From NCBI GenBank assembly GCA_028404505.1, contig JAOOBM010000002.1, positions 7,027 through 71,026 on the forward strand: 64,000 bases of DNA, read 5' to 3'. Positions within the stretch are counted from its first letter, which is position 1; every line of letters begins with the position of its first letter. Below, in pieces: positions 16,469-29,500 of this stretch. A program made the translations under genes and the position numbers. This DNA comes from Acidimicrobiaceae bacterium. Its GTDB lineage: Bacteria; Actinomycetota; Acidimicrobiia; Actinomarinales; Actinomarinaceae. The notes beneath the pieces are model-generated. The model was not told the origin of the DNA. It searched no databases and worked only from the letters and a program-made list of their open reading frames with translations.

Positions 16469-17335
16469 TTAATCCTTTATACACAGGGATGCATAATTCT
16501 CTAGGTATTCTCTCTCAGATACCTGCAAAACAAGATCATCTCTGTAATAAAGATAATCTCCCCCATAGTAAAGGACTAATGCGTCAGCAAATAATTCTTC
16601 ACTTCCAAAAAATTCTTGAGCTTTTTTTCTTTGATTCTCACCTTCTGAGTTGACACAGTTTCTTGTTAAATATGAAAGTGCGTGAGATGTTTCATGAAGC
16701 AATGTATTGTAAGCTCTATTATTAGCAAATGCTTTGTTTGAAACCCAGACTGATAATTTCCAATTTGAATTTGTTGAGCCATCTGGAAATGTTCCAGCTG
16801 AATCCCATACACCAAAAGGACATCTGCCCAAAATTGTAGCCGCGTAAGAGTGACAACCGTTTACAAATATGACATTATTTTCTACAGATTTTCTCAACTC
16901 TAAAGGTAAATTGGCAACTAATGTATCAAGGTTGAATTGATTTTCACCCTCAAATCCATCAAATGATATAAATTCACCCTCGTAAATTTTTATGTTTTCC
17001 GAATTATCCGAATTGAAGGCAACTGAGTCTTCTTTTTCTAGTACTTCAATTGTTGTTGTAGTTCGTGGAATTGTCGTTGTAGTTGATGTAGTAGTTGAGG
17101 AGGTAGTTGTAGTTGGTATAGTAGTTGTCGTCGAAGATGAGGTAGTAGTAAGTTGAATGGTAGTTGTCGTCGAAGATGAGGTAGTAGTAGTTGATGATGA
17201 AGTAGTAGATGTTTCAGTACTTCCAATATTAGCTTGAATACTTATCTCAATTGGATTATTTATTACATATATATAAGACAAACTAATGAATAAAACAATT
17301 AAAATGACAATAGTAACGGTTAATTTACCACTCAT
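16469..17335 (-). CDS. membrane-anchored Thr/Ser-rich protein with a C-terminal HExxH (putative zinc metallopeptidase) domain
   Basis: N-terminal TM helix, a poly-T/S linker of about 60 aa, then NGCHSY...LLHETSHAL...EELFAD. It is a clear paralog of 35238..36176. The start overlaps the upstream gene by 11 nt. Confidence 0.65.
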   Translation of the reverse strand: MSGKLTVTIVILIVLFISLSYIYVINNPIEISIQANIGSTETSTTSSSTTTTSSSTTTTIQLTTTSSSTTTTIPTTTTSSTTTSTTTTIPRTTTTIEVLEKEDSVAFNSDNSENIKIYEGEFISFDGFEGENQFNLDTLVANLPLELRKSVENNVIFVNGCHSYAATILGRCPFGVWDSAGTFPDGSTNSNWKLSVWVSNKAFANNRAYNTLLHETSHALSYLTRNCVNSEGENQRKKAQEFFGSEELFADALVLYYGGDYLYYRDDLVLQVSEREYLENYASLCIKD

Positions 17336-18905
17336 TTACTGATTCGCTAAGATCATCATCAACTAAATCTATAATTTCTTCATCATCAATCTTTAAACTT
17401 TCTTCATAGTCAGCGGGTCTATTCAATTCAGCATATTTTTTCATGAAGTTACCTAGTAGTAAAATTATGAATATATAAATTAATAAAACAAGCATGAATC
17501 TGTAAGCTAGCTCTCCACTCTGTAATAAAGTTTGTTGTAATTCATTAAATTCACTGTCAGGTGGTAAGACAAGGATTCTTATAAATAGCCAAATACTTAT
17601 CAAAAAGCTAACAATTGGCATTGCCTGATAAATTCCATCTGAGTCACCAATTGCATCAAATAACTCATTCCCTCCCCAAGGAACTGCTTTAAATATAACT
17701 CCCTCTAAACACATTAAGTAAGTAAGTTTACAAATTGCCATTAAAACACCTGAAGAGCTAACCGATTCAAATGATGTTGCGTAGAAGAAAAAATATCCAA
17801 CAATTGAAAGACTTATCATTGAATAAAATTTAGGTGACAATTCCGCTTTTGGTCTCTTCGAAACTACATGTATTGCTGCTATAAAACCAAGAATAAATCC
17901 AAAAGGAAGATCAATAACAATGAAGAGTATTGTTGAAAGTACTGCAAAAAACATGGCTTGTGGATTCCAATCAAATTTCACAATTTGGTCATACAGAAAA
18001 TATTCAATTAGAGATTCTATACCCTCATAAAAGAAGGTAACAATAATAAGTCCAAATAAGACACCAACAAAAATTGCTAAATTCTCTTGCCGTACTTGAA
18101 ATGTGAAGCCCTCCTCAACAAATGCATACAAGAGAGATGTAATTAGAGCCACAAGCGTTATCTCCATTGCTGTCTCAAGCCTTGTTTTATTTCTTAATTT
18201 GCTTTCACGATTTGACCACCTGACTCTATAGTATGCAATTATTCTGTTGAACCACTCCTGGGCGAGTAAAACTCCATAAAATAGAAATATAATTCCAGAA
18301 GTTATAAGAAATGCAAAAGCATTTTTAGCCTGATCTGAAAAATCAATATCACTGAAGAGTGGAATAGTTGTAATGAGCTCATTTGTGAATGTTATATTTG
18401 TTGATGTATCAATTACTGTTTCTTCAATAATAAAATCATCGACGGGAACAGTAGTAGTTATTACAGGAAGATCAGGAATTTTATTAATTATATACTCATC
18501 TGAAGTAATTTCAGTAGTAATGTCTCTATAACAATAAACCGAAGCGCAGTCCGGTCCACTATATTGTGTGTAGTTAGTTGATAAAATTTTTAAAATTATC
18601 GAAAGATCTGTAGTCCCATCCCATTGAATAATTTTTTGTCCTTTTTCAGAGTAATCGATAATCTCCAATGGTTCTCCTTGCAATCCATCAGATGTAAGTT
18701 CACGAACTGAAATAATCAATTCATCAATATTTTCAAGACCACTAACTAACCATGAAATTTGTAAATTATTTTCATCTAATCTTGCAGATTCTATTTCAAT
18801 AGTTGCTTCATCAGTATCATGTAAATTTGTATCTAAATATCCATTGGGGTATACACCGTTAAAAAAAGAAAAGAAAAAGATTAATGAAATAATTATTTTT
18901 TTCAT
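17325..18905 (-). CDS. polytopic membrane protein of unknown family (signal peptide, ~200-aa extracytoplasmic domain, ~8-9 TM helices, acidic tail)
   Basis: The start is placed at ATG 18905..18903, which shares one base with the sortase TAA stop (TAATG) and yields the signal-like MKKIIISLIFFFSFF. The ORF track extends to 18980. Confidence 0.7.
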   Translation of the reverse strand: MKKIIISLIFFFSFFNGVYPNGYLDTNLHDTDEATIEIESARLDENNLQISWLVSGLENIDELIISVRELTSDGLQGEPLEIIDYSEKGQKIIQWDGTTDLSIILKILSTNYTQYSGPDCASVYCYRDITTEITSDEYIINKIPDLPVITTTVPVDDFIIEETVIDTSTNITFTNELITTIPLFSDIDFSDQAKNAFAFLITSGIIFLFYGVLLAQEWFNRIIAYYRVRWSNRESKLRNKTRLETAMEITLVALITSLLYAFVEEGFTFQVRQENLAIFVGVLFGLIIVTFFYEGIESLIEYFLYDQIVKFDWNPQAMFFAVLSTILFIVIDLPFGFILGFIAAIHVVSKRPKAELSPKFYSMISLSIVGYFFFYATSFESVSSSGVLMAICKLTYLMCLEGVIFKAVPWGGNELFDAIGDSDGIYQAMPIVSFLISIWLFIRILVLPPDSEFNELQQTLLQSGELAYRFMLVLLIYIFIILLLGNFMKKYAELNRPADYEESLKIDDEEIIDLVDDDLSESVNEW

Positions 18906-20563
18906 TATCCAAATACCTCTACCCTTTCCAGTTGTCCAATAACTACAAGCCTTTCTCTTGCAGAGAATTTTGGATGACATGTGGTTAACGTTATTCTGTC
19001 GTCACCATAGTCCTCCAGTACATAATTATCTTCGGGAGATACGATCTTCACATCTATAACTCGGTATTCATATTGATTTGTATTTGTTTGAAATATTATT
19101 GTTTCACCAATCTGAACTTTATCAAGATTGCCGAATGGTGCACCATATGTAGTTCTATGTCCAGCAATTGCGAAGTTTCCTCCCGAACCTGGAAGTGCAG
19201 TTCCAAGTATATAACCGGGTCCATACTCTAATTTGTTACTCGTTGCACCAAAGACCACATAATGATTTATATTTGCAGATAGGATTGTTAACCTTCCAAC
19301 AACATCTGGAAGAAACTTTGCCTTTGCTGCTTGATTAGTAAGAGTTTTTGTTGCAATTGAGATAACAGACTCTTGAAATTCATCTGTTTGTGATAAATTA
19401 TTTAATGAACTATCAGTCGCGATGTTTTTATTTCTTAATTCAGAAAGTTTAACATCACTAACATTAAATTTATTTTCTAATAGATATTGCTCATCATTTA
19501 TTACTGAAGTAGAAAAAAATGTTTGATTAATTGAATAAATCAAAATTAAAAAACCTACTATTAATAAACCTACACCAAGTGGAAGAAGTGATCTTGTATT
19601 TGTACTTTCAAATGATTTTTTAGTTTCTGCTACTTCTCTTTGTCTTCGGTTTTTTTTTACAGGTAAATCAAATTTAAGTCTTGGAATGTTTCTATGTTTC
19701 TCAACTGGTTTTTTTGAAAAGACAATAGAAAATCGATCAGATGTCATCAATGCCAGCTTTTCTAATAACATTTCTTTTGTTACATCAACTCCTAAGTACT
19801 TTGCATTTTTAGATATATTTTTGACTGCAGATGTTAGGTAGTCTATCTCCTTAAGCATTGTCATGATGTCTTCTGTGAAATTATCAGGCTCAGCAATTAA
19901 AGGATTAAATCTCTCACCTACATCTACACTGATAATAACTTCTGTGCCAATAGCATTCTCAAGTACCTTTTTTAAAATATTTGATTTTACATAAATTTCT
20001 GAAAGTTCTACCTCAAAATTCTGATTAACATAACTCAGCGATTTTTGATTTTCAATTTCGTCTGAAGATAGATTTATTTCATTTCCGGAATCATCAGAAT
20101 TTATTTTTTTTAAGTCTTTTTGGTTTATTAAATTTTCTATTTCTTTAGCACTACTTAATTGATCCCTTATTTCAGTTGCTATATCAGGATTCTCAAGCAA
20201 ATATAATTTAGCTTTTTCTTTTCCATACCCGAGTTTTTCTTCGCCATATAAAAACCAATTACCTTTTTTTGTTACAATTTTTTCACTTACAGCAATATCT
20301 AGAAACTTACCATCAAATATTTGCTCAGCTACATCTTCTTCAATTTCTTCATATTCAACAAAAATATTTGTACTAGGATCTTCTTTCTTGAAACGTGAAA
20401 AAGGCCTTTTAGCTTTTATTGGTTCGATTGAATTTTCTTCTAAAAGTGTTGCATCTGAAATGACATCTGGATCATTAGATCTTTTTCTTCTAATTTTTAA
20501 TACAAATAGAACGGCAAAGATGTTGATAATTATTATCAGTAAATATATAAAAAAATATGCCAT
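18905..20563 (-). CDS. sortase (TLxTC type, class E-like) with a long N-terminal extension: TM1, ~300-aa cytoplasmic region, TM2, catalytic domain
   Basis: The C-terminal domain carries AIAGHRTTYGAPF (His), ITLTTCHP (Cys) and SARERLVV (Arg). The ATG at 20563 directly abuts the TAG stop of the giant gene. Confidence 0.85.
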   Translation of the reverse strand: MAYFFIYLLIIIINIFAVLFVLKIRRKRSNDPDVISDATLLEENSIEPIKAKRPFSRFKKEDPSTNIFVEYEEIEEDVAEQIFDGKFLDIAVSEKIVTKKGNWFLYGEEKLGYGKEKAKLYLLENPDIATEIRDQLSSAKEIENLINQKDLKKINSDDSGNEINLSSDEIENQKSLSYVNQNFEVELSEIYVKSNILKKVLENAIGTEVIISVDVGERFNPLIAEPDNFTEDIMTMLKEIDYLTSAVKNISKNAKYLGVDVTKEMLLEKLALMTSDRFSIVFSKKPVEKHRNIPRLKFDLPVKKNRRQREVAETKKSFESTNTRSLLPLGVGLLIVGFLILIYSINQTFFSTSVINDEQYLLENKFNVSDVKLSELRNKNIATDSSLNNLSQTDEFQESVISIATKTLTNQAAKAKFLPDVVGRLTILSANINHYVVFGATSNKLEYGPGYILGTALPGSGGNFAIAGHRTTYGAPFGNLDKVQIGETIIFQTNTNQYEYRVIDVKIVSPEDNYVLEDYGDDRITLTTCHPKFSARERLVVIGQLERVEVFG

Positions 20564-23500
20564 CTAAAATTTGAATGCTCTTCTTAGTATAAAAGCACCA
20601 AATCCGATTAGCATCAATCCAAATGAAATGATTAAACCACCAACATTTCGACCTGTAAATGGTATTCCTGGTGTTGGAGGGGAATCATCAGTAAATTGTG
20701 GTGTAAATGGATTCGATGCATCCTCTATATAAACAAATTCAACGAAATCATCACCTGGAAGGAACAAGAGTGATTCACCATTATCCTCCATTTCTTGATC
20801 GTCGCCATCACCTTCCATAACATTATCTGTATTTTCAGTAACTTCTACTTCATCGATAGGATTCTGTTCCTCATTAATTGGACGCTCATCCTCGATACAA
20901 TCAGCATCCTTGTTCTTAATCATTTTTTGAACTTTACCATTTTCATTGTTTGTTACTTCAAGAGCAACCGTAAAGAATTTATTTTCTCCTACTTCTATAG
21001 AGGAGAAATCTATTGTTTGGCCTGCTGGGACGTTGACAGTCTCTTGAGCAATGAGTGTTGTGTTGATCCAGATTTTCTTTAGAACTTTTGCAGAAACATT
21101 AGATCTTGAATTATCTACTGTAATACCAAACTCTGCTCCACCGTCTTCGAAGTCACAAACCCTATTAGTTGAAACAATCGGCTCAAATATATATTTCACA
21201 GGTGGCAATGTTGTAGTAGTGACTGACTGACATATAACTGTTTCTGCTTGAGATAACTGATAAGGAGAGTTGAGGTCGAACTGTGTAAAGCTGTTTTCAA
21301 CTGCTCTCCACTGTATAGTTGTATTATCAGATACCGTTAATTTTCTCGTTACAGGACTTGATGCGTTAACTGTGACTGTGTCATAGTTGGTCCATGGTCC
21401 ATTATTAAATTTATATTCAAGATAAAATGTCTTAACTTGATCAGATAGGTTTCTCATTTCTATTGTAGATACGGCAGCACTTTCAGTACATTCAGATATA
21501 GTTTGAATCAATTGAGGATTTGAGATTAAACCATCTCCACATTCTGAAGTTGATTTAGACGGTGTTTGTTGATAGCTTACGTCACTTGTGAGCTTATATT
21601 CAAATACAATTTGATCTCCATCATTTAAAGGAACTTCAATAGAGTAATTCGATGAAGTTGGATTTATTGAAACCGGTGCTGGACCAGACTGTGAAGGTCC
21701 ATTATTGATGGAGTAGTTGTACATCGCACTAACTGATTGAGGCCCAACATTTATAATTCGCAATTTTGCTGATTTACTACTGTTGTCAGCAGGACATATA
21801 ATTTCTGTAACAGCAGTAATTGCGTTAGCTTGAGAACAGTCGTTTCCTGTGCCGGAAACGTATTTATAATCTGTATCAGTAGCTAGTTTGTATCTCCATT
21901 GGAAAGGAGTATTTGCTGGTATTTTTACACCTCCAGTTGAAGTATACGTACTATTTACTGAGGGTGATCCAACACTCTGCCAATCTGCGTTATTGATATT
22001 GATGTCATAAATTACAGTTGCAACTTGACCGGGGTTAACAATAGACAATTTAGCAAATGAGCTACCGTCTACACATTCATTTGTATTGTATGCACTGATA
22101 ACATTTGTAACTGTAGAACAGTCTGATGGAGCAACATTAATTACTGGTTGAGACCAATTTGTTGTACCAGAAATTCGATATCTATAGGTGTAGTAGTTTG
22201 TAGTAAATGGTCTACTATCTACATACGGCTGCAAACTACTAACAGTCTGTGTACCCATTGAAAGATAGTTAGCATTATCTGTTGAATACTGAACTTCAAC
22301 TTGTTTTGAGGCAGTTGAACTACTTGTAATTGTAAATGTAGATGTCTTCGTTGAGGTAGCTCCATTTGGGGTACACGAGTTGGTTGCTGATGCTGACAAG
22401 CTATCATCGATACAGTTCACTTGAGCAGATCTTGTTTCGAAGTTTTCCTGTGAATTAGAATAATCACCCTGAACAATAGATGACTTCCATTTCCAGTTGA
22501 TATATTGTCCAGAGGTTAAATTTTGATAATTAGAGCTATTCTCCTGGCCAACTTCAACAGTTACCTCTGTTAGGAATTGATAGGAACCACCGCTGATTGA
22601 GTAATAGAGTTCATAATACTGGGTTAATGATCCAGTATTTTTAATCGTGATTCTGGAATCTCTCGTTAGATTTGTACAAGCGTCAAAAGCAACTGTAACG
22701 TCAGATGTCTGTATACAACTAACCGATAAAGCTTCAAGCTCTGTATAGGTTCCAGTTAATGTACTGGAAAGTCCCAATCGATATTTCCATTTAACACTTG
22801 AACCACTAAGAACGCTAGGAGAATCCAGGACCAATGGGGTTCCATTTGTAACAGAATAAATTCCTTTAAGGAGGTAGCCGGACCCTGTGTCATACAAAGC
22901 CTCAACATATACTGTCTCATTTGAGTTATTTGTAAATGTTAATTCTGATATTCTCTTTCCTGCAACACACTCTTTAAGAACATTACTAACAGCGACTTGA
23001 TTAAGAATAGGTGTTTCACAATCTAGTGCTGGTATCGTGTCCATTGTTGTCTCTGATGCGGATGTAAGTTTTACGACCGTTCCAGCATATTTATACTTCC
23101 AGCTAATAGTTTGACCACTTACTATTGTTTTGGCTATCGGCAATTCATTACCAGCAGTTATTTCAACTGTCGATACTTCGGTAGTCCAATCTCCAGTATT
23201 GAGTTTAGATTGTACCGTAACAAGCATTGGGGTTGCGCCTGTGTTTTTTAATACAAGTGTAGAAGTTGCTGTTTGATCTGTACATGTGCTGAATCCATGA
23301 CTTACTGTTAATTGGACTCCACAATCAACCTCTTCAGCTCCTCCTGCAAGAGAAATAAAGCTTGCATTTGTTAAAGCTGTGGTGTTGTAAGCAGCTTTAT
23401 ATTGCCATTCGATAGTAGTACCAGAGGTTACAGATTGTGTAACCGAATTAGCTTGCCCTGCAGCAAGCGTTCCATCAGAGGATGTTACTTTATTAATCCA

Positions 23501-26500
23501 TACTCCACCATCAATTCTGTATTGTATGTGGAAATAAGCTGCGTTTGCGCTTGATGACAATGTGGAATAGTTGAAAGTTGAAGTCTTTGCACCAGAGACA
23601 CATTGACTTAATGAAGTATATGGAGTGGAAATGCTTACCCCTGTACAATCAACTACCTCTGAGGTCGGTGGTGTAGTCCAGGTTAAAGAACTAAAATCAT
23701 TTCCCGTTTCAGAGACTTTGTATCTCCACGTTATTGCTTGTCCCTGTTGGACAGATATTGGTATGTCTGTTGAATTTCCAGTCGATACCACAACTTGTTG
23801 AGCTGCAGTAGTCCAGTTGTTGCTATTAGCTCCTTCAAATGTGTATTGGGCTTGATAGTATAAACTTCCCGAACTTGAGTTGAATATGTTTAACTTAGAG
23901 GTCTTGTAGCCATTAGCATCACAGGCGGGATCCATTGTAATAGAGATATCTTCACCATTACAGGTAATAGTTGTCGCATTTAAAGTTGTCCATCCAGTTG
24001 GAAGATCTGCTTGAGTTTTTGCAACTTTATATTGCCACTGTATCGTCTGTCCAGCTTGAACATTTTGTGAATGTGAAAATTCACCATCTACACTTATTTC
24101 TTGGTCTGATTTATCAATCCATTCTCCAGAACCAATTTTGTACTGAACTTTGAAATATGCTGAAGTTGTAGCGCTTGAGCTATTTTTTATTATGAATTTC
24201 ACATTCTTTGTGTCGTTATAACAAAGACCAAATGATTGAACAACACTCGGATCAATATTTTCACAATTTATAGTCTTTTTAAATGCGGAGTTAGCAGTGT
24301 GATCAACCCAGGTTGCAGATGCCAAACCAGCATTAGAAGTTGCTGCTTTATAACGCCATTGGATATATTTTCCAGAAGCTACAGTCTGTGTAAATGCCTG
24401 TGGTGAACCCGCGGTAAGTATTAAGTCATTATCTGCGTCAGCATATGCTGAGGTACCCTCAATAAAATACTGGACATGATAATGTACGTCTCCAGCCGTG
24501 TTGTTGGTTAGGACAAAATTAGATACTTGGCTATTGCTTATACATGTATCTAATGTATGACTGATGAGTGTATCTAATGAGCAATCCTCGGGAGTTTGAG
24601 TACTTTCATTTATCCAGTCACTTTCAGCAGGAGCTGTAGCTGAGGTCATTGGATAGTATCTCCATTGAATTGTTTCTCCATTAGGGACACTTTGATGTAT
24701 GACATTTTGCGCTCCCACACCTACGAAATTTGCTTGGCCGCTCGTGTGATATTGCCAAGACTGATTATCGCCACTCAAATCATATTGAACATAAAAGTAT
24801 GCTCCATCATTGGCAGAAGAAGAGTTTTCCATAGTAAAAGTCGATCTTCTCTGACCACTTATACAAGACCCAAATGCTGAAGAGCCGGTTGCATCAAGAA
24901 TTACACAATCAACAGTAGCTGAAGCCGTGAGTTCTACGACTTCCGCATTTGCATAATCATTAGGTGTATTACTAACCTGATATTTCCATTGAATATTTTT
25001 ATCATGTGGAACATCAACGGTTAATGTTCTATTTGTAAAATTGGGACCAACTTCTAAATTTGCATCTTTTAAAACCCAAGTATTGCCAGTTTTATAATGA
25101 ACCTTAAAATAAACAGTATTGTTTGTTTCATCATTTGTTACATTAAGTGTCGCTGTTTGAGATCCGTTATCACAAGAACCCATTGAATTAGTGACTGTTA
25201 CATTTATTACGCAGTTCACATAACCACTTGTATCATCTTCTGTCCAGTTGTTTAAGAAGTCTGCTGAAGTATTGACAGATTCGTATCTCCAGATAATTTT
25301 CTGTCCTTCAGTTATTTGTAGGTTATTTGATGTTACCTGAGAAGCTCCTGGAGCAACTACAGTATCTATTAACGAGGAGTTTGTCCAATCTGTGACTGTT
25401 GTAGTAGGCGTCACAATTTTGTATTGAACACGGAATTTAGCAGCAGATGTAGAAGCGCCGGTATTAGTTACCTTAAATGTTGCTGCTCTGAAATTCGATC
25501 CACAACTTGAATATTGTGCTTCTACTGTTACTAAACTATATGGACAATTGATTGTCTTTGTATCCGTGTAATTCCATTCCTGTGCATTTAAATTACTCAA
25601 AATTTTATTAACTTTATAACGAATTTGGATTGTTCCCTGGTGCACAACAGTCACTTGCATAGTATGGTTTTCAGTTTGTCCATTCGTTACAGATTCCGCT
25701 GTCTTAAATGCAACCCAATCGGTATCAGTATTTCTTTTGTATTCAACAGTGAAATAAGCTGTGTCAGAACTTGATGGAACTAGGTTTACGATTGGTGTAG
25801 AAGAGCCGTTTCCACATGTTGTTGAATCTACATTTATATCTACTGAACCACCTGCACAGCCACAATCAACTGTTGCACTAGCAGTTACCTCTTCCCACTC
25901 TTGACCATCAAAGTCACCACCATTGGTTGTATCTTTTACTCTCCACTGTATCGTCTCACCATCTGGGACAAATTTTGATAAACTATTATTAGTCGCGCCC
26001 CCACTGACCGAGATATCGAAGGCAGATTCTAGTGAATCCGTTGCAGATAACCACTGACCATTTCCAATCTTGTACTGCACTTTATAGTAAGAGGTGTAGT
26101 TGTCATTATTTTTAATAGATAATGTAGAGGTTGCTCCTAAATCATTACACTCACAAGTTGTTAATGTCTGAGAGTAAGTTGAGTCAGGATCACAGTCAAC
26201 ATTTACAGTTGTTGTGTTGACCATATTATGGTCCATGAAATTATCATTGAATTCATTTGAAGAATCGTCAACTCTATAGTGTTCATAATATGACCCTGTA
26301 CTTGTCAAACCGCCTATATAGTCAAACTGCCTTGCGTTGATGTTTGTATTTGAATATAAGTTGTGATATGTAGTATAAGAGGTGCTAGTGTTAGGCAGAG
26401 TATGATCTCTTACGTAGCCCCATTTGATTTCAAGAGCAGTACCATTAGTTACTTTCACACTTGGCAAATTAATAGTTTCCGTATTAGATAAAGCCGCTCT

Positions 26501-29500
26501 CTGATCGATATGTTTAGACCACGTAACACCCCCGTTTGTTGAGTATTGATAGAAAAGTCTTGCAGGTTGATAAGGATCTAAATGGGTAACCGTAGTGTCA
26601 TTAAACGTAAACTCAACCTGTCCTTTATTTTCTAAACAAGTCAACTGCGTAGTAGTAAGTGTGACAGGTTCTACATCATTCTGATCACAATTGGTATCTG
26701 GTGCAATAGTCATTGTTGTAAAAACACCAGTGAAATTACCCATTGTAAGGTTGTTAGTTGTAGAGGTGTATGTTCTATATCTAATTTGGTACTGATGTGT
26801 TGAGTCAGTAAGAATTACGCCAGCTACGTAATGATTTTGGCTAAAGTTACTTGGCCTGATAAATCCGTAGTAGGTAGGGTGTGTATCATTAAAATGGCCT
26901 TTTGTTCCAGAGTTGGAGGACCAAGAATAGGTGGTTAAGTTTGAGTACTGCATTCTACCAAGAGGTTTCCATGTGTTGCCATCATGTGAGATTTCAGCTT
27001 CTATGTGAATATATGAACTGGAAGTAAAGCTTGCAGATGTGCCGTTTCTTTTAAACTTAAACTCTAACTTATCAGCTCCATAGAGGTTACAAGATACATA
27101 ATCTGTGCTTACTGTGAAAAAGTCATCTGTGCCACAATCAATCGTTATTAAATCATTTATAACTTCTGTACCGTATGATCCGTTTTGTGTGCTCTCAATG
27201 TGATATTTAATCAATACAGTATCATTATTTCCATACGATTCTGGAAGAGTAACCGTACCGTTACTCGTATTTGCATTTAACGTAGCGACAGACCAGTTCG
27301 TATCATAACCCTGGCTATTCTTATTTATTTTGTAGTAAAAATAATTAGTAGTATTAGAAGAGTTCGTGTATCTTATCTTTAATTGTTGTGAACCGTTGTA
27401 ACATGCTTCTGGTGTTGTATTTTGTTCAACTGTTACGGATGATACATCAGAAGAACAGTTGATCAATAATGTACCCGTGGTAGTGAAGGCACCAGAAGGT
27501 GGTGATGTTGCTGCGTATCTGTACTGCATAACAACTGTCGTACCCTGAGGAATTGTATCCTGTATTGTATATGTTTTAACCTCACCTGGAAGAATCATCT
27601 GATAGAGTGTGGCGTTACCGTTATTTGGATCATAGAAGGCGTCGTTGTAGTTTTGCCCTAGATCGGTTGAGTACTGTACATGAAAATAACCAGTAGCCCA
27701 ACCATTGTTGCCAATTGTAATGGTCGGTGTCGCACCGCCAGATACACATGTTCCAAGAGCAATAGATGCTGTGCTAGCTCCAACAGTTGGACAGTTCACT
27801 GTCTTTTCCGCTGAATAATAGGTATTAGAATTTGAGAAATCTCCACTTATATAGGAGAACTGAAATTTATATTTAATTTTGCCAGCATGATTAACTGTTA
27901 ATTCTTTTGTATAGGTAGTACCCATTGCATAATTAGTTTCAACAGGTGTCCAGTTACTTCCACTATCTGTCGATTGCCAAAGCTTCAGATAATACTGCAC
28001 ACCACTTGGTCTTGTAAGCGTGAGTGTAGAGAGTGCAAAACCACCAGTTTCAATTGTATTTTGACATTCGCCAATAGTGACAAGATCGCTGTAAGTGTCA
28101 TTTGTTGAATCAGTCGTAGTTGTTGTTCCCCATCCAGATGTATTAATTTCTGGCTGACAATCAGTAGTTCGCTGTTCTGTAGTTTTATTGTAATTTCCAA
28201 GTGTAATCCAATCAGTTGAGCCAAGTTCATTTTCTGCATACGCAACTTTGTACCTTAGTTTCATAACTGATCCTGTGACATACCTGGTTGAAAGATATAT
28301 ATAACGATTGGCACTCGAACTTGCCATATTTAGATTGTTTGTTGCTTGAACTGCCGTGTATCCGTCAGCTGAAAGACTTCCTGAACCGTTACTTACAGCA
28401 AAGTAACTATTGTCATGGTAAGTGTCATCCATCCTATAAAAAAGATTGGTGGTATAAAAATTGGCACCATTATCATCTGAAACCTCGAATGCATACCACA
28501 GAGATGTTCTGTTTGGATCATTATAGTTTTGGTTATACAAGACCCAGCCCATCCACTGCTTATTGTCTACACAGCTATTTTGTTCGTTAGAAGGTCTTGT
28601 TTCGTATTGATAACTGCTGTTATTATATGGATCTACATTGATATCACAGTCGTGATGATAACTTAACCCACTTGTTGGAGAGTTTAAATACTGATAGGGA
28701 TAGGCTTGCGTATCCCAAGTTGGATTCTCTGTATAAGATTTTTGAATCCTCCAGAACATGTAAGCGTCTTCATTAACCCCATAGGTTACGGCACCAGCTG
28801 TGTATACAAATGTAGTATTAGCAGCTACTGAGAATGTCGTGGCGTCTGGCGTGTTGTAGTTGGGACTGTAGGAAACACTTGTGCTGAGTGTTGAGGCAGT
28901 TCTTGATGGGTTAACTTTAAAGTAAATTGTTTGTGATTCGTTGTTGGTTATTGTCAATGTTGATGTCTGTCCAGCTGAGCTACAAGAAGTAACATCATAA
29001 CTTGCAGAGATATCTGGAATACATTGATGTATTTGTCCGTTAGTGAGATTATATGGATACGCCGTAGTGTTGGTCCAATCCGGTGTCTCAATATAAGAGC
29101 CCTGCACAAGCCACTGCATATATCCGTAAGTTCCATCAGGGTAAAGCTTTCTCATATTTGGACTGCTTGATGCATCATATGTGAGTGTAGAATTTGCCGG
29201 AACAGAGAATGTAATTGCTTCGCTATTAATGTCATAATTCGAAGTGTTAGATGTGCTGTAGTCATAAGGTGTATCGTTTTTTGTAGGAACTGCTCTGAAA
29301 TACAGAGTCTGGGATTCGTTGTTGGTTATTGAAAGAGTAGAGTATTGACCATTAGCTGAACACTCACTAAATGATGCTGATTGAGAGTAATTAGCAATAC
29401 AGTTTGCCTCTCTACTAAATACTGCCCAAGACGCATTTTGTGTAGAGTCAGTAGGGTTTGTTGCTGCAATTCGATACCTAAAATATCCTGTTGAGGAGGT

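Follow-up and report, generated by a model that had tools for sequence, protein, structure and literature searches.

A class-E-like sortase of Candidatus Actinomarina with a RecA C-terminal domain homolog in its predicted cytoplasmic loop

The sequence considered here, referred to as the window, is a stretch of 64,000 nucleotides from contig JAOOBM010000002.1 of an Acidimicrobiaceae bacterium (assembly GCA_028404505.1, positions 7,027 to 71,026), numbered from its first letter. In the open reading frame (ORF) listing of the window, the minus-strand ORF at 18905..20563 encodes a sortase of 552 amino acids (aa), directly after a giant gene for its presumed substrate, and between the two membrane helices of this sortase lies a segment homologous to the C-terminal domain of RecA (Table 1). 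That the enzyme has this architecture and that the segment is a true RecA C-terminal domain homolog can, taken together, be regarded as close to certain.

Much of this had been proposed in a sequence-only reading of the same DNA. Its outline of the protein agrees with what is found: RRKR comes right after the first hydrophobic segment, the second such segment spans aa 326-345, and the TLTTC motif is there, within a Sortase domain at aa 425-545. Its placement of the intervening loop in the cytoplasm is in keeping with the two hydrophobic helices, the positive-inside charges, and the extracytoplasmic site of catalysis, as predicted from sequence. The interval that it gave for the RecA-like segment, 20156..20320 on the minus strand, does translate as aa 82-136 (IFDGKFLDIAVSEKIVTKKGNWFLYGEEKLGYGKEKAKLYLLENPDIATEIRDQL), although the peptide that it quoted begins at aa 83 and is therefore one residue off.

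Table 1. Features of the sortase gene and its neighbors in the window (TM, transmembrane helix; AF2, AlphaFold2; pLDDT, predicted local distance difference test; dN/dS, ratio of nonsynonymous to synonymous substitution rates).
Feature	Window position	Strand	Basis
Whole gene: sortase with two membrane helices and a predicted cytoplasmic loop of ~300 aa	18905..20563	-	ORF listing; Pfam Sortase and RecA_C; full-length orthologs L001-L010
TM1, aa 3-23, predicted N-out/C-in	20495..20557	-	Kyte-Doolittle peak 3.09; flanking charges; 54% invariant columns across species
K-I-RRKR, aa 23-28, directly after TM1 (two residues precede TM1)	20480..20494	-	Sequence
Linker, aa 29-82, variable and probably disordered; acidic patch right before RecA_C	20318..20479	-	pLDDT <50; 9% invariant columns; dN/dS 0.1-0.3
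RecA C-terminal domain homolog, aa 83-137, fold alpha-beta3-alpha2	20153..20317	-	PF21096; PDB sequence matches; AF2 and Foldseek; dN/dS; invariant columns
Variable polar/acidic linker, aa 138-166, its start prolonging the last RecA_C helix	20066..20152	-	Low pLDDT; dN/dS 0.2-0.5
Second conserved cytoplasmic domain (domain 2), aa ~167-286, orphan	19706..20065	-	AF2 pLDDT ~85-90; dN/dS 0.05-0.08
Basic juxtamembrane segment, aa 287-325, KKNRRQREVAETKK, on the predicted cytoplasmic side of TM2	19589..19705	-	Sequence and charge count
TM2, aa 326-345, predicted in-to-out, then an acidic extracytoplasmic stretch	19529..19588	-	Kyte-Doolittle peak 2.48; 46% invariant columns
Extracytoplasmic stalk, aa 346-420, and sortase catalytic domain, aa 421-552	18908..19528	-	PF04203; H469 (AGHR), C529 (TLTTC), R538; alignment to solved sortases
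Giant gene, 3745 aa, presumed sortase substrate; stop abuts the sortase ATG	20564..31801	-	ORF; junction TAGATG; sorting signal; synteny
C-terminal sorting signal of the giant protein: IPFTG-RNVGG, hydrophobic stretch, RRAFKF	~20567..20665	-	Conserved in all loci
Co-operonic membrane protein, ~525 aa, signal peptide and multiple TM	17325..18905	-	Likely ATG 18903-18905 overlaps the sortase stop (TAATG); synteny in all loci
288-aa ORF without family match, syntenic, co-operonic	16469..17335	-	Pfam/NCBIfam; synteny
TetR-family regulator gene, immediately upstream of the giant gene, same strand	31911..32528	-	

The sortase and its RecA-like segment

The Pfam profile for the RecA C-terminal domain (PF21096, RecA_C) matches aa 85-137 of the sortase over profile positions 1-53 of 57, with E=1.2e-17 and 64.1 bits against a gathering cutoff of 27. 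From the NCBIfam recA model TIGR02012 just positions 267-319 of 321 are matched, with 39.4 bits where the cutoff is 325.3, and the intein-containing recA model gives a like result, while the RecA core (PF00154) has no Pfam match in the 552-aa protein. When all PDB sequences are searched with phmmer, the segment finds E. coli RecA at residues 270-323 and mycobacterial RecA at 272-326 (273-326 in M. smegmatis), with E of about 1e-7 to 1e-8 for single-copy RecA chains, and the only other matches to the protein are sortases. Identity to the RecA of E. coli, M. tuberculosis, and M. smegmatis is 38-42%. The alignment with RecA that the earlier reading had made, with identity put at about 40%, is therefore sound. 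The domain is also recognized in all 10 of the aligned orthologs, with a best E of 2.1e-19.

A full-length AF2 model, built from a shallow alignment of 12 sequences, is poor overall (pLDDT 44.5), and of it only the RecA_C and domain 2 parts are usable. In this model aa 85-138 are folded, at pLDDT 70-79, as a helix, three strands, and two helices, and a Foldseek search of the PDB places the RecA of M. smegmatis, M. tuberculosis, and E. coli at the top, with probability 1.00. The comparison with RecA that had been suggested as a check thus ends in a superposition on residues ~270-325 of RecA, at an rmsd of 0.8-1.0 A over 54-57 residues, which backs up the sequence homology without being independent evidence, since RecA structures are in the training data of AF2. 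A second model, of aa 76-300, has improved pLDDT and reproduces the superposition.

The sortase module therefore shares with the RecA C-terminal domain (E. coli ~270-328; NMR structure 1AA3) both the alpha-beta3-alpha2 fold and the G-x-W, G-x-G-K, and E-N-P...E-I motifs. Unlike in RecA, it stands apart from the ATPase core and the N-terminal polymerization helix, so that the protein is not a recombinase and neither filament formation nor strand exchange would be possible. It is tethered to the membrane, it is succeeded by a different domain where RecA has its acidic tail, and two RecA residues are replaced in every sortase ortholog, Q300 by Y113 (GQGK becoming GYGK) and N304 by K117. A degenerate whole RecA is ruled out, as the core is not matched and the domains do not run collinearly with those of RecA. 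The E-values, and recurrence in 10 genomes and hundreds of contigs, likewise rule out chance similarity or a chimera.

At the other end of the protein, PF04203 (Sortase) matches aa 425-545 with E=1.6e-29 and 102.6 bits, against a cutoff of 26.6, and TIGR01076 of NCBIfam scores 70.8 bits against 39.35. The catalytic triad of H469, C529, and R538 is conserved in every full-length ortholog and aligns with that of solved sortases, so that profile, triad, TM2 anchor, and a substrate with a sorting signal are all present. The best NCBIfam class is class E (NF033747), although its 114.3 bits fall below the cutoff of 160 and the substrate motifs, for which LAxTG is the class E form, vary between species. 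The protein is accordingly predicted to be a real and functional, class-E-like sortase of Candidatus Actinomarina.

The class E sortases of known structure (Streptomyces coelicolor SrtE1, 5CUW; S. avermitilis SrtE, 5GO5; Thermobifida fusca SrtE, 9IOK) share with it the motifs GNFAIAGHR..YGAPF and TLTTCHPxFS..R, the membrane helix right before the catalytic domain, and an actinobacterial host. A further likeness is the xAxTG form of the substrate signals in the divergent Actinomarina clade. Unlike these enzymes, the Actinomarina sortase has an additional N-terminal TM and a structured loop of ~300 aa, predicted to be cytoplasmic, that carries RecA_C and the orphan domain. Whereas class E sortases are actinobacterial housekeeping enzymes, this one shares an operon with a single giant substrate. 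We know of no described sortase with a structured cytoplasmic loop that carries RecA_C and an orphan domain.

The orientation of the loop follows from the hydrophobicity and charge of the protein. There are only two hydrophobic segments on the Kyte-Doolittle scale, with cores at aa 3-23 and aa 326-345, and the charges around them conform to the positive-inside pattern, with RRKR after TM1, KKNRRQR..KK before TM2, and an acidic stretch after TM2. Catalysis has to take place outside, and between the catalytic domain and the loop there is just one helix, so that the ~300 aa would be cytoplasmic and TM1 would be N-out. On this reasoning the predicted topology must run from an N-out TM1 through the cytoplasmic loop and TM2 to the catalytic domain outside.

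Coding status, distribution, and gene neighborhood

A scan of 185,579 species-representative genomes identified ten loci that are 49-99% identical to the sortase over residues 1-552. Seven are labeled as Candidatus Actinomarina single-amplified genomes (SAGs) or metagenome-assembled genomes (MAGs), and the remaining three are short contigs in evidently mis-binned MAGs. The latter (L002, L004, and L009, with sortases 80-84% and 49% identical) were deposited in MAGs labeled as Flavobacteriales, Methanobacteriota archaeon, and Gammaproteobacteria, probably through binning contamination.

It had been recognized that the N-terminal extension might be a mis-joined ORF, and on inspection the extension is genuine. 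The sortase ATG abuts the stop of the giant gene with no spacer, as TAGATG (TTTTAGATGGCA), and in all ten ortholog loci the sortase is an uninterrupted single ORF with the same start, M/V-x-YFF, directly after the C-terminus of the giant ORF. Within aa 240-340 the in-frame start codons are M265, L272, and M273, none of them near TM2, and no obvious Shine-Dalgarno sequence precedes any of the three. An internal start near TM2 is ruled out, as start codons are lacking beyond aa 273 and the extension itself evolves under purifying selection.

Indeed, RecA_C has a dN/dS of 0.02-0.18 and domain 2 one of 0.05-0.08, compared with 0.03-0.09 for the catalytic domain and 0.2-0.6 for the linkers; synonymous sites are saturated in the distant pairs, and the closest informative pair (dS ~0.8) agrees with these values. 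RecA_C and the second loop domain are under strong purifying selection across the genus.

In a protein database clustered at 90% identity there are more than 780 clusters of this sortase, mostly from marine metagenomes, and both PF04203 and PF21096 are present in every sortase cluster among those listed. A profile search for more diverse relatives returned only the dominant clade of 82-84% identity. The loop (aa 24-332) was also used as query in an exhaustive HMMER search of 1.84 billion representatives clustered at 50% identity. At E<=1e-30 all 6 proteins found are of the Actinomarina type, and at E<=1e-10 there are 14, of which 11 are Actinomarina-type proteins or their fragments and three (P0131-P0133) are RecA-derived fragments.

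The other ~1400 HMMER matches (E<=0.001) are restricted to aa 83-138 of the query. Outside the Actinomarina family, the best 150 representatives look like RecA, RecA C-terminal fragments, or assembly chimeras, with the exception of P0242, a giant low-complexity protein that matches only outside the RecA_C segment. Among these best 150 of ~1400, no other non-RecA architecture carrying RecA_C was seen. The fact that the loop as a whole matched only Actinomarina-type proteins would suggest that the fusion of RecA_C to a sortase, together with domain 2, is an innovation of the Actinomarina lineage. The host's own recA was looked for, as a test of internal duplication, and is absent from the window and from the fetched loci.

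Separately, in the metagenomic protein P0207 (169 aa) the C-terminal end of a RecA precedes another RecA_C-like repeat, which has diverged (…HAWIMYGTTTIGRGVEVSRGLIEANPVLLKEI…). The protein could represent one more case of a detached or duplicated RecA_C, or be artefactual.

In the AF2 model of aa 76-300, domain 2 is a long helix, a strand, a long helix, a helix, and a strand. It has no match in Pfam (E up to 10) or in the profile search against PDB sequences, and Foldseek gives no convincing structural neighbor in BFVD or among the best 50 of 98 PDB matches, all of which are RecA entries. No homolog of it was found outside Actinomarina-type proteins among the 1.84 billion representatives. Domain 2 is therefore an orphan alpha/beta domain.

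The order of genes is identical in every locus that is sufficiently long: the giant ORF, the sortase, the membrane protein of ~520 aa, the ORF of ~288 aa, an SBF transporter, and Rho. In the other loci, too, the sortase always lies directly after a giant gene (>3300 aa) with a C-terminal xPxTG or xAxTG sorting signal, and a survey that had been called for, of the sortases beside homologous giant genes in other genomes, finds that all carry the extension. The signal is laid out as [hydrophobic]-[P/A/G]-x-T-G-(R/S)-N-V-G followed by a hydrophobic stretch and a basic tail. Its motif drifts between species (IPFTG, LPVTG, FPRTG, YGPTG, FAPTG, FADTG, and FARTG), while (R/S)NVG, the hydrophobic stretch, and the RR tail are kept. 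In the window there is one ORF with a C-terminal sorting signal, that of the giant protein, and one sortase, and from this arrangement the sortase is predicted to serve specifically the giant surface protein of the gene directly upstream of it.

The giant 3745-aa protein has no Pfam or NCBIfam match. Its sequence has a high content of T, S, and N and includes 62 Cys, and 'YFxVQY' modules recur in it every ~104-110 aa or multiples of this. Between Actinomarina species it is 35-66% identical, though syntenic. The membrane protein of ~525 aa is matched weakly by NF041501 ('FGLLP motif-containing membrane protein'), at 42 bits where the cutoff is 150, and it may, with the 288-aa ORF, be part of the same surface-protein system. 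The TetR-family gene could regulate the giant-protein operon.

Possible roles of the cytoplasmic loop

In RecA the C-terminal domain is a 'gateway' that captures duplex DNA via a lysine cluster, in which K286 and K302 are well conserved and required for strand exchange and K280 and K282 contribute (PMC4666392). By the PDB alignment, in which sortase residue 83 corresponds to E. coli RecA 270, three of these four lysines are invariant in the sortases (K282, K286, and K302 as K95, K99, and K115), and the fourth, K280, corresponds to position 93, which is K in 7 of 11 sequences. K100, K117, and K119 are also invariant, K100 and K117 being additions relative to the DNA-capture lysines of RecA, and the usually basic position 306 of RecA is kept. 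The simplest reading of these residues is that the module would still present a basic, DNA-type binding face, retuned.

The earlier reading had proposed that the segment might tie anchoring to a partner or signal in the cytoplasm. The loop may then be a cytoplasmic docking or localization module for the sortase. Its RecA_C module would bind the nucleoid, or another polyanion, weakly and without sequence specificity, and so hold the enzyme beside the chromosome in very small cells. Docking would take place at the site of joint transcription and translation of the 11-kb giant gene, the sortase, and the membrane protein after it, and presumably also of their joint membrane insertion. Since the DNA-capture lysines K282, K286, and K302 of RecA are retained, nucleoid binding would be the most likely single mechanism; taken by itself, docking to DNA is a tentative proposal that falls well short of being probable. 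A class-E-like sortase with a RecA-derived cytoplasmic docking module, likely to bind the nucleoid, is the best explanation of the locus as a whole, and as a whole it stands somewhat nearer to being probable, though still a little short of it.

Membrane-anchored proteins with a cytoplasmic DNA-binding domain are known in the ToxR/CadC-type regulators and RodZ. In these, as would be the case here, a cytoplasmic module of a nucleic-acid-binding type is joined via a membrane helix to an extracytoplasmic domain. The likeness is a functional analogy only and there is no homology: their domains are winged or simple helix-turn-helix domains, sequence-specific in ToxR and CadC, whereas the sortase has a non-specific RecA_C module and its outside domain is an enzyme.

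Several points weigh against a nucleoid-docking role. The isolated RecA C-terminal domain binds DNA weakly, the net charge of the module is -1 in the protein of the window and 0 to +4 in the orthologs, and the invariant replacements of Q300 by Y113 and N304 by K117 suggest that the specificity has been retuned. On a domain tethered to the membrane, a lysine patch could equally bind anionic lipids or a protein. Domain 2 offers no functional clue, and the structural agreement with RecA carries the dependence described above.

The first alternative is that RecA_C and domain 2 form a platform for protein interaction or oligomerization, which would recruit a partner (from secretion, cell-wall precursor supply, or division, or a RecA-associated protein) or dimerize the sortase, and so control how or where the giant protein is anchored. 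In RecA itself this domain serves regulators as a contact surface as well, and the short cytoplasmic tails of other sortases have been reported to affect localization. The two invariant replacements would here mark a new specificity, and domain 2, with its long helices, is conserved as strongly as the catalytic domain. In LexA-RecA docking, K302 is a restraint residue (PMC3834820). However, no partner can be named, which calls for caution over a docking role in general, and the neighboring conserved genes, for the membrane protein and the 288-aa ORF, are not evident candidates for a soluble cytoplasmic one. That precisely the DNA-contact lysines are retained is at least as compatible with DNA binding. 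A protein platform is therefore considered rather unlikely.

It is less likely again that the basic face of RecA_C binds anionic phospholipids of the inner leaflet and that the loop is mainly a structural, membrane-organizing spacer without signaling; this is improbable. The six invariant lysines on a small domain, tethered to TM1 by a linker of ~55 residues, would suit such a role, and the strong conservation of both TMs suggests a specific membrane-embedded hairpin. A spacer, however, needs no conserved, folded RecA_C and second domain at dN/dS <0.1, and the net charge of the module is near zero. Least of all can the arrangement be an artefact (a chance match, an assembly chimera, or a mis-called ORF with its true start near TM2), an extremely remote prospect that has a formal opening solely in M265, L272, and M273 and is opposed by the E-value against a curated profile, the same single ORF in 10 independent SAGs/MAGs and hundreds of metagenome contigs, purifying selection on the extension, and the lack of any start codon between aa 274 and TM2.

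Nucleoid docking can be carried one step further. Through a nucleoid-binding, RecA-derived module the sortase might form a physical transmembrane link between chromosome and cell wall, with anchoring coupled spatially to the DNA of the giant protein as this is co-transcriptionally translated and secreted. This is an unlikely proposal, more doubtful than either docking to DNA or a protein platform. Were it true, one of the smallest free-living cells known would have its nucleoid fixed to the envelope, and for the first time a RecA C-terminal domain would be shown to work separately from RecA and a sortase to have a cytoplasmic domain that binds nucleic acid.

Novelty and significance

The pairing of Sortase and RecA_C domains is already recorded automatically in protein-database tables. 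A full-text search found, within the literature that it covered, no paper that joins a sortase with a RecA C-terminal domain or Actinomarina(les) with a sortase, or that cites PF21096, and the Actinomarinales genome paper makes no mention of a sortase, a giant protein, or RecA. These searches are consistent with the earlier suggestion that the fusion was undescribed. Sortases are usually regarded as simple membrane-anchored ectoenzymes, and to our knowledge no RecA C-terminal domain has been recognized apart from RecA itself. What is described here is a known kind of enzyme with a new, lineage-specific cytoplasmic architecture and, as far as can be told, the first well-supported RecA_C module outside RecA.

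Should this reading be right, the RecA C-terminal domain would be an autonomous and transferable module. Candidatus Actinomarina is a globally abundant and extremely streamlined marine actinobacterium. That such a streamlined cell keeps ~300 extra cytoplasmic residues under strong selection would point to an unrecognized coupling of inside to outside in the anchoring of surface proteins. The system is small and well defined, with one sortase, one giant substrate, and one operon, which makes the idea testable, and it gives a functional handle on an uncharacterized giant-protein operon that is core to Candidatus Actinomarina.

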